Source of the DNA: Eledone cirrhosa
Taxonomy: Eukaryota
DNA: 64,000 nt
Reading direction: 5' to 3'
NCBI GenBank assembly: GCA_964016885.1
Contig: OZ024742.1
Span: 68,386,001-68,450,000, forward strand
Made by a program: the position numbers and the translations under genes
Notes under the pieces: generated by a model
What the model was told of the DNA's origin: nothing
The model's database searches: none
Seen by the model: the letters and a program-made list of their open reading frames with translations, nothing else
In this document: positions 23,986 to 29,441 of the stretch, piece after piece
Numbering within the stretch: position 1 is the first letter of the stretch
Layout of the letters: every line of letters starts with the position of its first letter

Positions 23986-26900
23986 CTACAGGATGGTATA
24001 CAGAGAAGGCCCATTTACACGAGCCATTCTCGCCACTATCACCCACCTTTCATAAAACTGCCAGTGGCCAAGCACCTCTCTCTCCATTCTTATCCTTCTT
24101 CCGAAGTGATATCGGAAGAAGTAGACCAGACTATGGCCAGAGAGGAAGTTGCCTGACCTCAGACCTTTCAATCGTGTCCACCAAACAACCTCTTTCAACA
24201 TGGCTATTACGCACAGAAAGACCGCCTTTGCTTCCTTTGTGAAGAGGGGAGGCGGCTTGATTGTCATCACGGACTCGGCGGTCAATCGAATCGGCGCCAC
24301 CCGCGACAGCAGTCGTTCGGCGTAGCCCCACAGATCAGTCACGCCCGGACATTGCACCAATGCGTGCGCAACGGTTTCTTCGTGACGCACGCATCTAGGG
24401 CAAATCTTTTTCGAGGGATCCCTGCCCGGGCGCCCGTGTCTGTAGAGCTTTTCTCGAACGGGTATAGCCCCCCGGTAGCACTGCCAGGCTAGTGACTTCT
24501 GGAAGTTGTCCATTGGTCCCGGGCCGAAAGTCCTACCGAACAGGCTGGCCAGCTCGTCGTTTTCCATGTCCAGCGACTCTCCAAGGGTGTCATCGCCCCT
24601 GCTAGCCACCAGCCCTCTATAGAATGATGAGGTGGATTCTCCACCGATGGCCGGGTCCGCTTGCCAGAGAGCCCTGAGCGCCTGGGCACACTCAGTGTGC
24701 CAGTCTCCCAGTTTTCCGGATCTTTGCTTGACCCAGGACTGCAGCTCGGTGAGCGAGACGAGTCTCGGAAAGGCTCGTTTCACGAACGGAGCCCACACCG
24801 GTTGACCAGTGAGGAATACCTGTAGGTGCCGTAGCCTTAATGCGTGCCTACACATCATCAACCACGGCAACCCCAGCCCTCCTTTCGAAGGTTGTTGGCA
24901 GCAGATGGATCTGCTCACCATAGGAGGGCGCTTCTTCAAAGAAATTGAAAGAGCATGCGTTCCATGGTGGTGAGTGTTTCCTTAGGGCAAGGCACGACAG
25001 TCAGGCGGTAGTAAGTGACGGACGCTATGTAAATGTTCGCCACCTCCGCCCGACCTTTTAGGGACAGCTTACACTTGGCCCATTTCTGGGTTAGTGCAAA
25101 CACCTTGTTCGTAACCTCGCCCCAGTTCTTTTCCACCTGGAGGTCCGGTCCAAACCAGACCCCAGGCAACTTCACCGGGCCCTCCGTCCAGTGTCCGACG
25201 ACACCGTCGGGAGGCATCGGTCTGCCTCTCCACGTTCCGAGTTGCAGCCCGATGGATTTTTCCCGGTTCAGTTTCGCTCCTGACAACCTTTCGCATTCCT
25301 CCAGTAAGGTACCGATCGCCTCGATCTCCGAGTCGGTCGATACCATTACTGTTACGTCATCGGCGTAGGCCGACACCGCTTTGCTCAATCCTGGTTCCAG
25401 GGGGATACCTTGCAACAACTCCAACTTCCTCAGTAAAGGCTCGAGAGTCAATACGTACAGAAGGGAGGCGAGAGGGCACCCCTGTCGAATGGATCGTGTG
25501 ATTTCTAACGGCTTCGAAAGGTAGCCGTTCACCTTGATCCTAGAACAGATGTGGTTGCTATGTAAGGCAGTGATCCAGCCTCTGAAAACGGGACCGAACC
25601 CAACCGCCGCTAGCACCGCATCCAGGTAACCATGGTCGACCCTATCGAACGCCTTAGACTGATCCAAGTTGATCAGGGCCCCACCGAAGCCGGGTTTGTT
25701 GCCAACCCTCTCTATGATGTATCGCACGAGGTGGAGGTTGTCGTGAATGGACCTGGATGGGATAGCACATGTCTGCGCATCTCCCACCAGGCCACCCACG
25801 ACAAGCGCCAACCTCTTTGCTAACACCTTGGCCAATATCTTTAACTCTGTGTTTAGCAGGGTTATGGGCCGAAAATTATTTATACTATCCCCCTTGTTCT
25901 CGTCCTTCCTCACCAGCGAGTCTACGCCCTTGGCTACAGAACAAGGAATTCTCCCGTTCTGCTGCCAATTGCAGTAGACTGCTTCGAGGAGTTCGGAGAA
26001 GAAGACCGGCATTGCTAAATAAAGTTCGTAAGGTATACCATCGAGACCTGGAGATTTGCGTCTGCTGCATCGGCTCAGCTCATCCCCGATCTCATCAGCC
26101 GAGATTGGTCCCTCGCAGGACTCTGCCTCTTTGCTCGAGAGACGCGGTAGGCCGTCGAGGTATGGACCGAAATCCACGTCCCCGCCCGGACCCTCGCCTC
26201 CCCCGAACAATCGGGCAAAGTGCCTTTGAAAGGCCTCGCACATCTGCTTAGGCTCCCGGATCACCCGTCCATCCTCGTCTTGCAAAGACCGGATGGTGGA
26301 TCGATTTCCACTCTTAGCTTCTGTCACGCGGGCCCAGCCAACGGCTTTGGCCCCCTCATTACCTAGAGCACGTATTTTACTTCGAATGACGCAGCCTTCG
26401 TGCTTTGCATCGAAAAACTGGTTCAAGGCCGTCCTCGATGCCAGCACTCTGGCCACATCTTCGATCTTGATTGCCTCTTCTAATTTACCTGTTAATTCTT
26501 TCTCGTTCCTATTCCTATCGGCAGCTAACATCTTGCTATAACTTATTGATTCTGTTCTAATCTCTCTTTTAAGAGATGCCCACCATCGGTTGTTGACGAT
26601 TGCACCCGTCAACCTCTCCTTAACTAATCTGCTAATCCGGTTTCTGTAAGTCTCTTTTGCCGGTAAAGACAAATTAAGTTTCCAGTAACCGGGACCCTGT
26701 CAATGTGTTTTCTCGAGATTGACTACGCAGGTCACTAATTTGTGATCTGTATAGCCAACCGTGAGCATTTCTGGACAGCTTAATATGTCCCTATCCTTAC
26801 TTCTAACTAAGAATCTATCTAAGTACGATCTAGATTGACCACTATGGTTCGTCCAAGTCCAGGTTGGCACAGTTGGAAAATCTAGTCGATATCTATCGAC

Positions 26901-27422
26901 CAAGTTAAAACGGTCGAGTAACCCCTTGAGGCTGTTACACCCCGCTCTATTAGGACATGCTCCTGCATAGTCCCAACGTGCATCTAGGATGTCATTCCAA
27001 TCCCCCGCTAGAAGCAGGGAACGCGACGTTCCCAGAAAAGTCTCCAGACGCTGGAAGAAGTCGGGTCGTTCAGCTCCGAAAGGAGAGTAGACGGCGACCA
27101 GTCTCAAGGCCGCACCTTCACTACTGCCAACGTCTAGCACCAGCAAACGACCTTCCGAGTCCAAGTGAACAACCTGTACGGCGAGACCCAGGTGTTTTTC
27201 CAGCAGTACGACAACCCCACCCCCACCTCCAGGTTGACAGAGAGATGCATGCACCTCAAAGTCATCGAAGGTGGGGGCCAGCTGCCGCACGACGCTGATC
27301 CGAGTCTCATAGATAACCATTACATTTATACCACGTGACCTGAGGTCATTTAGAAGCTTTGCTTGCTTCCAAGTTGAGCCCAGGCCACGTGCATTCAAAC
27401 ATCCTACTCTTAACACATCCAT
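23986..27422 (-). pseudogene. Tx1 copy B ORF2 (APE-RT-CCHC); one nonsense codon (26700) and one frameshift (about 24937)
   Basis: ORF pieces 26700-27422, 24936-26672 (YADD) and 23986-24939 (CPRC...ETVAHALVQC). Confidence 0.95.
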
Positions 27423-29441
27423 GTGGGCGGCAAAGCCAAAGGAGAGTGTAGAGACCTACCTTTCTGCTTCCCAGGGTTCGGGTCGCACGACTTCCATGGG
27501 GTCGGGGGTGTTGGGTGAAGGGTGTCTTGTGGTGGTGTAGGGTCGTCAGTGTGTGGTGGGGTTGGGGTGTTTGGAGTTGTGTTGGGGAGGGGAAGGGGAG
27601 GGGGAAAGCTTTTTAGGAGGACGCGGTTTATGGGTTTGACAGAGGGTGGTCCTACGTCCTCCTTAAAATCCTTTTTTAGTTTTTGGTAGAGGTTCATTGG
27701 GATCTTTATTAATTTTAAATGTGGGTAGTTTTCTGAAGAAACAAAGTTTACCCCTTCGGTTTGTACCGAAGGGTTATTGTTTATGAGTTCATTTAATTTA
27801 TTATTGTTTCTGTTGTGTAAGTATAGTGTAATGTCTTTTTTTCGGATGGTGTGAGTGTTTCGAAGAGGGGAGGGGCAGGTTTGGTTTTGTTTGTTGCTGG
27901 AGGGGTGTTTTGTGTTTTGTTGGATTGTGTTGACATTTGGGTAGGGGTTGTTTGGCCTTGTGTGTTTTGCACATGTTTTCTTTTTTTCCTTTTAATCTGT
28001 CTGAAGGACTCCGTTTCTTCCTCCGAATTCGTTGGGTTATCTTCAGTGTTGGAGGGAAGAGGTATGTTTGCTGGTAATGTTTCCGTGTTGGTTTTCTTTG
28101 TGGGGGAGATGGATGTCACTATGTTAGACTGTGTTGTGTGTTGTGGCTGCGGTGGTTGTGTTGTTTTATTGAGTGAGGGGTTGGGTGGGACTGTGTTTTG
28201 TTTTTGGGTAATGTGTTGTGTCTGTTTGTGTTGTGGTGGTGGTGTAGTTTTACTGAGGGACAGGTTGGGTGGGACTGAGTTTTGTTTTTGGGTAATGTGT
28301 TGTGTCTGTTTGTGCTGTGGTGGTGGTGTAGTTTTACTGAGGGACGGGTTGGGTGGGACTGAGTTTTGTTGTTTGTTTATCTGTTGTGGTGGTGGTGAAG
28401 CTGGTGTTCGTAGCAGGGTTTTCTTCTTGTTGAGTTGGGGACAAGCCGCCTTCAGGTGCCCTCTGCCTACACAGATATCACAGGACGGCATTCTCCCCTC
28501 CACGCTAATGTTTATATACCCGTGGCCCTCTAATAGGATTCTGTCGGGTATTTGGGCAATGCGTTCAGGCTTCATTTGCACTACAAGTTCTATACCTGTT
28601 CCACTGAACGCATTGCCTGTGGTTTTCCCAATGGAAATCACGTTGTCATTCGCTGGATCGATGAAGCCAGCTATGAGCCAGCAGTAGTCCACATCTGGCA
28701 TCATCGCATCCAGCCATATGCGCTGAGTTCTTTTACCCATATAAGATGGATAAAAGGTAAAATTTGTCGAACGAATCGGCGACAAAGCATATTTTTTTGC
28801 CGCTGATTCGTTCTTCATAATAATCGCTAGGCTTCCATACAGTCTGTCTCTTCTTATGAAAGTGGTTTCATTAATTACTTCTGTAAGTACTGCTTTAATT
28901 TCTGCTTGTGTTGGTTGTTGAGGTTATTTTGAGATGTTGTTGATGGTACGGAAAACGACCGTCCGACTTTCAATATCTTTGGTGAGTTCTTGAGACATTT
29001 TTACCGATAAGGTTCCATTTTCCCCTTGAGTTATGTATTGTTTGGCGTTTTTTATTCTTTGTGCCACATCTGAAATATTTTCAGGTATATATGTTAAAGA
29101 TTTCTTTGTTGTTTGTGCAAATGAAATATTATTGGTGCTGACTTTGTCGTCTGCTTTGCTTTCTGTTATGATGTTGTTTTCAAATGTTATTTTTGTGTTT
29201 GTTGTGTCTTTGTTTGTGGTATTAATATTGTCATGCAATTCTTTCAAATTTTTTTTGTTGTTGGAATCAATCTCCAGATTTGTGTTTTCGTAATTTTTCT
29301 CCGCACATTCGTCTGTTTTTATTTTATTTTTCTTTCCTTCTCTATGACGTTAGTTGGGAAGGAAGCGGGGACTAAAGCGTGCGAGCTTACAACTCTTACC
29401 GCTGTCCTCCCACCACTATTTTCGTTAGCTTCGTTTAACAT
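27410..29441 (-). pseudogene. Tx1 copy B ORF1, frameshifted; contains an 84-bp tandem repeat (about 3 copies, 28130-28380)
   Basis: ATG at 29441 (MLNEANENSGGRTAVR); CDICVGRGHLKAACP knuckle; 28-aa repeat QKQNSVPPNxSLSKTTPPPQHKQTQHIT. Confidence 0.85.

Follow-up and report, generated by a model that had tools for sequence, protein, structure and literature searches.

The window analysed here is a 64,000-nt stretch of Eledone cirrhosa contig OZ024742.1 (positions 68,386,001 to 68,450,000), in which five pieces of long interspersed nuclear elements (LINEs), labelled A to E, are inserted in (TATC)n repeats. A sequence-only reading had noticed that the second open reading frame (ORF2) of these elements is framed like an intron, with a 5' splice-site consensus at the end of ORF1 and an acceptor-like ORF2 stop, and had proposed that splicing yields an ORF1-only RNA. 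The splice-like motifs at the ORF2 borders were partly confirmed in the present analysis, and their interpretation as an intron is partly supported. In addition, the spacer between the donor-like site and the ORF2 start was found to be complementary, in antiparallel orientation and allowing for G-U pairs and bulges, to the ORF2 stop plus ~45 nt following it. The corresponding features are listed below, with slashes marking putative exon-intron borders.

27454..27462, minus strand: element B donor AAG/GTAGGT; read in the family frame, it contains AGG as the final codon of ORF1 and the TAG stop (27458-27456)
27419..27461, minus strand: element B predicted 5' helix arm, comprising the donor, the pyrimidine-rich spacer and the ORF2 ATG (27422-27420); duplex of -35.4 kcal/mol with 23951-23993
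23986..27422, minus strand: element B ORF2 (apurinic/apyrimidinic-type (APE) endonuclease, reverse transcriptase (RT) and zf-RVT), broken in this copy; the segment that would be looped out
23951..23993, minus strand: element B predicted 3' helix arm, comprising the last ORF2 codons, the TAG stop (putative acceptor), a purine run, and the 5' arm and loop of a hairpin
23941..23967, minus strand: element B local hairpin of the 3' untranslated region (UTR), GAGCAC..GTGCTC type, competing with the donor pairing; other families have this hairpin with altered base pairs
21482..21533, plus strand: element A donor GAG/GTGAGT, ORF1 stop TGA (21486-21488), spacer and ORF2 ATG (21530); 3' end lost
51063..51101, minus strand: element D donor GAG/GTAGGT and spacer; the ORF1 stop of the family frame overlaps the ATA (51067-51065) with which ORF2 starts
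47613..47657, minus strand: element D ORF2 stop (47650) and predicted 3' helix arm; -32.5 kcal/mol in this copy, -39.7 in L234
42606..42655, minus strand: element C ORF2 stop (42650) and purine run; ORF1/ORF2 junction lost, internal deletion near 45500-45513
53553..53603, minus strand: element E, a 3' fragment, with the ORF2 stop (53596), the purine run and the hexamer ACTCAC, which is perfectly complementary to the donor GTGAGT

A conserved donor-like site at the end of ORF1

Related copies were sampled by anchoring on the ORF2 coding sequence rather than on the splice motif. From 80 long stretches fetched, the 59 with both junctions 3.25-3.56 kb apart were kept and fell into 11 families with ORF2 identities of 69-91%; a twelfth family, N, was added afterwards. 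All 12 were drawn from one genome, and no relatives in other species were found in two metagenome scans.

The donors described earlier are indeed present at the junctions of A (first intron base 21485, plus strand), B (27459, minus strand) and D (51098, minus strand). They lie 45, 37 and 31 nt before the ORF2 start, respectively, in agreement with the 30-45 nt originally given. AG/GTRRGT was the majority sequence in 12 of 12 families (the 11 first sampled plus N, where GTAAGT was found in all 13 copies checked), and positions -2, -1, +1, +2, +5 and +6 were invariant across them. Only 51 of 217 four-fold degenerate ORF2 columns were invariant. Hand figures for this invariance, rough and ignoring pairing constraints, were 0.055 for two non-coding positions, ~0.02 with the synonymous +1 position added, and ~0.001 on the assumption that the protein can do without its terminal Arg. 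At the sequence level, these data support the presence, in all families sampled, of a strong and conserved donor of the U1 type at the stop of ORF1. Parts of further families, either an end or a start, were seen at L072:3034, L076:929 and L261; among them are one TAG/ATT, one ACCTAC in the hairpin and, in L261, a single copy, one GAG/GTTAGT donor.

The ORF1 stop usually falls at donor positions +2 to +4 and is TAA, TAG or TGA depending on the family, preceded by an AGG (Arg) codon; ORF1 ends in EAER in most B-type copies, in EARR or ETKR in the A/E/C/F type and in REVR in N. The same-phase frame with a conserved Trp codon that had been read at A and B did not hold up: it was read because the window copies carry frameshifts, and most copies are open longest in phase 2. 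Family D is in phase 0 (6 of 7 copies with at least 100 open codons). Its ORF1 reads through the donor to a TAG; the donor is kept though the stop has moved. In all parsed D copies (L272-L301; window 51063-51070, minus strand) ATA replaces the ORF2 ATG and is overlapped by the ORF1 stop, forming a natural non-AUG stop-start.

Predicted family-matched pairing between the spacer and the 3' UTR

The predicted duplex between the spacer (donor position -3 to the start codon) and the ORF2 stop region (-8 to +48) reached -24 to -46 kcal/mol in 11 of 11 families, with z scores of -2.6 to -6.5 against shuffled sequences; family N gave -40.3 kcal/mol (z -4.8). The ORF2-stop site was the best partner of the spacer along the element in 9 of 12 families, and the sense duplex was equal to or stronger than the antisense duplex in 10 of 12. 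When the purine run alone was shuffled, 10 of the 11 families had a weaker duplex (z between -2.0 and -4.7; G gave -0.6), and co-folding with 75 nt of 3' UTR gained 10-30 kcal/mol over separate folds. Because pyrimidine and purine runs pair loosely, comparison of own with foreign partners was taken as the deciding test. It comprised 48 copies of 11 families and 8 copies of N (56 in all), with chimeric and unassigned copies excluded. Of the 66 family pairs, 61 showed stronger pairing with own than with exchanged partners (p ~2e-5 by permutation, from a statistic that ignores phylogeny), and N ranked first in both its row and its column of the pairing matrix. Sister families favouring their own partner were K/N (the deepest sister split, -20.8 kcal/mol), D/B (-7.8) and H/J (-2.9). 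The spacer of element A paired best with the E-type 3' UTR (A-E -47.9, A-D -40.3, A-C -38.7 and A-B -31.9 kcal/mol).

For family N a prediction was written from its 3' UTR before its spacer had been seen, namely a GTAAGTG start and a T-rich end. The prediction was largely borne out: the donor start and the T-rich end were both found, together with further matched runs, TTTTCCAC/GTGGAAAA and TCCCA with TGGGA. The register of the duplex is shared by most families. The first base of the ORF2 start codon lies opposite the last ORF2 codon, with an A-A mismatch at the stop (C-A in B), and the donor faces the hairpin of the 3' UTR at its 5' arm and its loop, such that GT at donor +5/+6 pairs with an invariant AC of the hairpin arm and the exon-side GAGG pairs with the hairpin loop. 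The partner follows the donor, as in GTAGGT with ACCTAC (G), GTGAGT with ACTCAC (E) and GTAAGT with ACTTGC (F and N), and partly in B, D and M. The predicted helix is also present in N, where the acceptor is absent. Since both the purine run and TAG/GT pair with the spacer in the models, they are explained without invoking an acceptor or the exonic splicing enhancer that the purine run had been thought to resemble.

Several observations weigh against reading this pairing as a specific, donor-masking helix. When copies were averaged, no more than 3 of the 12 families had their own partner at the top of the row, and two of the five sister pairs, G/M (-0.1 kcal/mol) and E/C (+1.4), showed no own preference. 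The longest perfect own runs (5-9) were no longer than the foreign mean of 6.65, length covariation was not significant (rho 0.44, p 0.16), and masking of the donor was partial in H, I, K and C. The p value is uncorrected for phylogeny in families that share ancestry, and a U1 function for the donor is borrowed from other systems. Moreover, foreign pairs also reached -20 to -44 kcal/mol and specificity was poor in G, H and C, as might be expected if common ancestry and base composition simply let a pyrimidine-rich spacer and a purine-rich 3' UTR start pair in silico without any function. We consider this last explanation very improbable, given the 61 of 66 pairs that favour the own partner, the effect of purine-run shuffling in 10 of 11 families, the success of the N prediction and the 20.8 kcal/mol by which K and N prefer their own partners. 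Complementary arms over donor and acceptor with covariation, as described for duck hepatitis B virus (DHBV), were found in the models, with masking partial in 4 of 12 families. Sequence comparison supports a functional link between the two ends of ORF2.

The ORF2 stop as a putative acceptor

CTGTAG/G followed by a purine run, the acceptor consensus reported previously, was found at all four ORF2 stops in the window (23986, 42650, 47650 and 53596), but it is not universal. TAG/GT is present at the ORF2 stop in 11 of 12 families, and N has CTGTAA/A, a TAA stop without AG, in 20 of 20 loci. Related families with TAA or TGA stops had been named by the sequence-only reading as evidence that would speak against it, and N is such a family. 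It is young (99% identity among the best 40 of 1,035 candidates; stretches L323-L364), and its ORF2 is 69-76% identical to those of the other families. The putative acceptor is weak: only 2-5 T occur in positions -14 to -4, 8 of 11 families have another AG competing at -9/-8, and purines interrupt the tract of K, where 13 of 21 bases are pyrimidines. By sequence, the ORF2 stop falls short of a 3' splice site, for which a YAG, a U-rich tract and no AG just upstream would be expected. In N, a U-rich CAG lies ~159 nt into the 3' UTR in 20 of 20 loci, and AAG/G occurs seven bases past the ORF2 stop. No comparable 3' UTR acceptor was found in the other 11 representatives, except for one AG just before the poly(A) signal of D.

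Joining the donor of A to the acceptor of C or E had been said to leave essentially the same ORF1 protein, ending in G instead of GE; the join would in fact add 32-43 residues. Joining to the ORF2 stop would leave ORF1 identical only in B, G, H, M and typical K copies, whereas D would gain three new residues and I, J, E, C and F would gain 27-50. The spacer was also considered as a mini-intron or as a source of an acceptor for ORF2, and this was rejected, as a spacer AG is present only in some E/C-type families.

These features bear on a copia-like mode of alternative splicing, in which, for part of the RNA, the donor would be joined to the AG of the ORF2 stop (in N, to a different acceptor within the 3' UTR). 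The resulting ORF1-only mRNA would be translated and not copied, and the helix would set the spliced fraction. Such splicing fits a U1 consensus that is nearly perfect in 12 of 12 families and persists in D, where the stop has moved away, as well as in the poorly pairing H, I and K. It also fits the constancy of TAG/GT in 11 of 12 families, against an ORF1 stop that takes all three codons, the exact regeneration of ORF1 by the join in B, G, H, M and K, and the U-rich CAG at ~+159 in N, the sole family without the AG. Set against these are the weakness of the acceptor, with its upstream AG in 8 of 11 families and its absence from N, and the 27-50 unrelated residues that would be added in I, J, E, C and F. 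A stop directly after AG/G in 6 of the 8 families with GT followed by two purines is what chance would give, three in four by hand count.

An intron-like segment was also seen in the 5' UTR of most families, where a non-coding GTAAGT, GTGAGT or GTAGGT donor is followed ~35-70 nt later by a U-rich TAG and the segment is kept in genomic copies. The 5' UTR of N seems to be without a donor.

29591, minus strand: element B 5' UTR, second donor-like site, with an intron-like segment retained in genomic copies
47278 and 53216, minus strand, and near 19447, plus strand: further intron-like 5' UTR segments, also present in L232, L310, L253-L258, L304 and L240

Spliced copies in the genome

If the spliced RNA were mobilised, genomic copies lacking ORF2 precisely from GT to AG might be found, and a search for them had been proposed. 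Exact degenerate patterns were run genome-wide for the B, A/E/C, F, G, H, I, J, M and N types, with D and K outside the pattern test, and no such deletion was found in the families covered. The sequence-only reading had listed this outcome, too, as speaking against it; with the TAA stop of N, two of its three counter-indications were thus observed or nearly so. For the B, A/E/C and F types, 2,040 junctions were unspliced and one purine-tailed match (L151) was obtained, which was rejected as a +6 point mutant. The G, H, I, J and M types gave 2,229 against one match (L322), an unrelated chance match; the two totals partly overlap. The five matches in N were four point mutants and one deletion, and no spliced copy. 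The deletion (L368:1520) removes 346 nt from the donor into the endonuclease region and was rejected as a splice: it ends in GG, not AG, with a 2-nt microhomology; the source copy could have differed. In family D, 28 of 30 parsed loci were unspliced. None of 60 loci retrieved with 3' UTR queries had ORF1 upstream, none of 60 retrieved with ORF1-end queries ran on into the 3' UTR, and the 5' UTR segment gave 0 spliced copies in H and J. Contigs of sequencing runs of unknown kind (X1, X2, X4 and X5) contained no donor-to-ORF2-stop joint among the joints listed and no loose end at 27459/27460 among the 12 listed, and they were not used as evidence. In run X4, contig depth over window 29127-29528 was far higher over the 5' end than over ORF2, unlike in the large runs X1 and X2, and depth cannot rank the parts.

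In the families tested, the lack of spliced copies implies that spliced RNA is not mobilised at a detectable rate. The earlier proposal that such RNA is mobilised is unsupported by these counts, and the idea of an ORF1-only RNA that is both spliced and mobilised is weakened. An RNA without ORF2 would need ORF2p in trans. Because such an RNA need not be copied, the splicing model as such is weakened only, and because the intron-like 5' UTR segment is likewise retained in copies, missing spliced copies need not mean that no splicing occurs. Penelope, which keeps an intron through transposition, provides a precedent (PMC2377424). Spliced human L1 RNAs, on the other hand, do leave genomic copies (PMC5860796), against 0 in 2,040 and 2,229 here and none in N. 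On balance, we regard copia-like splicing as unlikely.

A possible structural checkpoint

The interpretation to which we give roughly even credence is a structural checkpoint, in which the family-matched helix would mask the U1 donor, likely keeping the finished RNA unspliced and gating ORF2 translation. The predicted helix of 22-40 bp would form in vivo and close ORF2 into a loop. During transcription the free donor would bind U1, and premature polyadenylation would be suppressed or the incomplete RNA held in the nucleus. Once the 3' UTR had been made, 3.5 kb later, it would pair with the spacer and donor, and only complete RNA would escape splicing or retention. ORF2 would then be translated by termination-reinitiation: a ribosome halted where the helix has its outer end would open up the spacer, and ORF2 output would be kept below that of ORF1. 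The acceptor look of the ORF2 stop would mostly be a by-product of the stop codon and of pairing with the CC before the ATG.

The functional steps are drawn from precedents in other systems. In DHBV pregenomic RNA, complementary sequences near donor and acceptor protect the RNA from splicing (PMC3356268). The two cases are alike in pairing over a long distance near both sites and in the need for the RNA to remain unspliced if it is to be reverse-transcribed. DHBV is a virus with demonstrated splicing; in the LINEs, the predicted helix extends over the ORF2 start and stop as well and has a 3' UTR hairpin as its competitor. U1 at the donor prevents premature termination of full-length RNA in EVD (PMC5580714), and nuclear retention by 5' splice-site motifs has been described (PMC4380460, PMC9074902). 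Subgenomic gag splicing in copia and EVD shares with the present case a donor located where the structural gene ends and an intron of ~3 kb that may span pol; these are long terminal repeat elements with a single gag-pol frame in which splicing is needed for the gag stop (PMC5580714), whereas the LINEs have their own ORF1 stop and ORF2 start, putative splicing and a predicted long-range helix over both sites. Spliced human L1 RNAs (SpIREs) are dead ends that leave genomic copies (PMC5860796), and the intron of Penelope is a short one in the 5' UTR (PMC2377424). Both are retroelement RNAs with splice signals; they differ in that SpIREs leave spliced copies, of which none was found here, and the Penelope intron does not span ORF2.

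In SART1, a structure downstream of the stop-start is required for ORF2 reinitiation (PMC5972666). Silkworm SART1 and mammalian L1 share with these elements a bicistronic RNA, a short spacer or overlapping stop-start (family D) and tolerance of a non-AUG start; their structures are local or unknown, and no spacer/3' UTR pairing is mentioned in the sections available (PMC5972666). The overlap of the ORF1 stop with the ATA in family D fits reinitiation because such an overlap is expected for it (PMC5972666). The SART1 requirement also fits a reading, in our view a rather doubtful one, in which the helix acts only in translation or ribonucleoprotein assembly, by juxtaposing start and stop, tying ORF2 synthesis to an intact 3' end and handing the 3' UTR to nascent ORF2p, while the splice-like motifs are by-products of Arg-stop and pairing. 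Consistent with this, donor positions +2 to +4 are a stop codon, +5/+6 GT and GAGG are predicted to pair with the hairpin arm and loop, and a second donor-like AG/GTGGGT, ~60 nt before the ORF2 stop (window near 24045, minus strand), is present in 8 of 11 representatives, where it does no more than encode Arg-Trp-Val. Such a role gives no reason, however, why ORF1 should end in AGG in 11 of 12 families when the residues before it differ; of the 47 invariant Arg columns of ORF2, only 4 use AGG in all families. Nor does it account for the retention of GTAAGT despite a mismatch with its partner or for the recurrence of non-coding donors in the 5' UTR.

The checkpoint could also be extended to an RNA switch, though we hold this to be improbable: with the helix open, ORF2 would be spliced out to give ORF1-only mRNA, with acceptor turnover in N, and with the helix closed the unspliced RNA would be exported, reinitiate and be the sole form copied.

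Element identity and surroundings

ORF2 carries Exo_endo_phos, RVT_1 and zf-RVT Pfam domains in this order (N-terminal APE endonuclease, RT and C-terminal zinc finger), and its best PDB match was human L1 ORF2p, far above R2. Protein searches returned turtle, fish and lancelet pol-like proteins as best matches at 30-42%; the fish entries among them we take to be Tx1 families. A CCHC knuckle, CX2CX4HX4C, was present in the ORF1 translations of B, D and A, with a zf-CCHC Pfam match at E 0.0017, under the Pfam cut-off. By an informal tally, copies are bordered by (TATC)n or (ATT)n, often in tandem, and K and N lie in (ATT)n. The ORF2 domains, the CCHC ORF1 and the simple-repeat target were all found, and by sequence the elements fit L1/Tx1-type non-LTR retrotransposons, with the Tx1 clade proper a candidate placement. 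Kibi and Koshi are Tx1-clade families that target microsatellites (PMC4494074), and L1-Tx1 families have been annotated in Octopus vulgaris (PMC13282606). These share the APE-RT-zinc finger ORF2, the CCHC ORF1 and simple-repeat insertion with the present elements and differ in their target repeats; no splice signal or helix is described in the available sections, and the string 'splic' has 0 matches in PMC13282606. Two further features belong to element B.

27456..29441 (start approximate), minus strand: element B ORF1 with CCHC knuckle and Pro/Thr-rich tail, frameshifted here
23700..23780, minus strand: element B AATAAA at 23780 and (TATC)n tail or target

Head-to-tail arrays of different families, with short (TATC)n between them, were seen at window 42300-53800 and on G000 C1 at 4.22-4.26 Mb and 10.02-10.04 Mb. 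In such arrays, read-through transcripts could join the ORF1 donor of one element to the 5' UTR acceptor of the next. Chimeric elements that join 5' sequence of one family to a 3' end from another were found at L226, L224 and L238 (L226 has a K-type spacer and an N-type 3' end) and suggest recombination or template switching between families. Another RT-encoding repeat family occupies window 54371-64000 in several copies, with no relation to A-E at the DNA level.

Implications

No description of an ORF2-spanning intron or of a spacer/3' UTR helix in any LINE was found in the open-access literature searched. Within the literature searched, the modelled pairing appears to be a real, conserved and covarying RNA feature that is new for LINEs. 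It bears on two questions about LINEs: by what means a single RNA yields abundant ORF1p but little ORF2p, and how complete transcripts come to be favoured. A helix linking the ORF2 start to the ORF2 stop over a U1 site would be a concrete, mutable element, with natural compensatory variants in 12 families, and the one family that has lost the acceptor, N, is a natural variant useful to both questions. Should the RNA switch prove true, it would be the copia strategy reinvented in a non-LTR element with hepadnavirus-like structural control.

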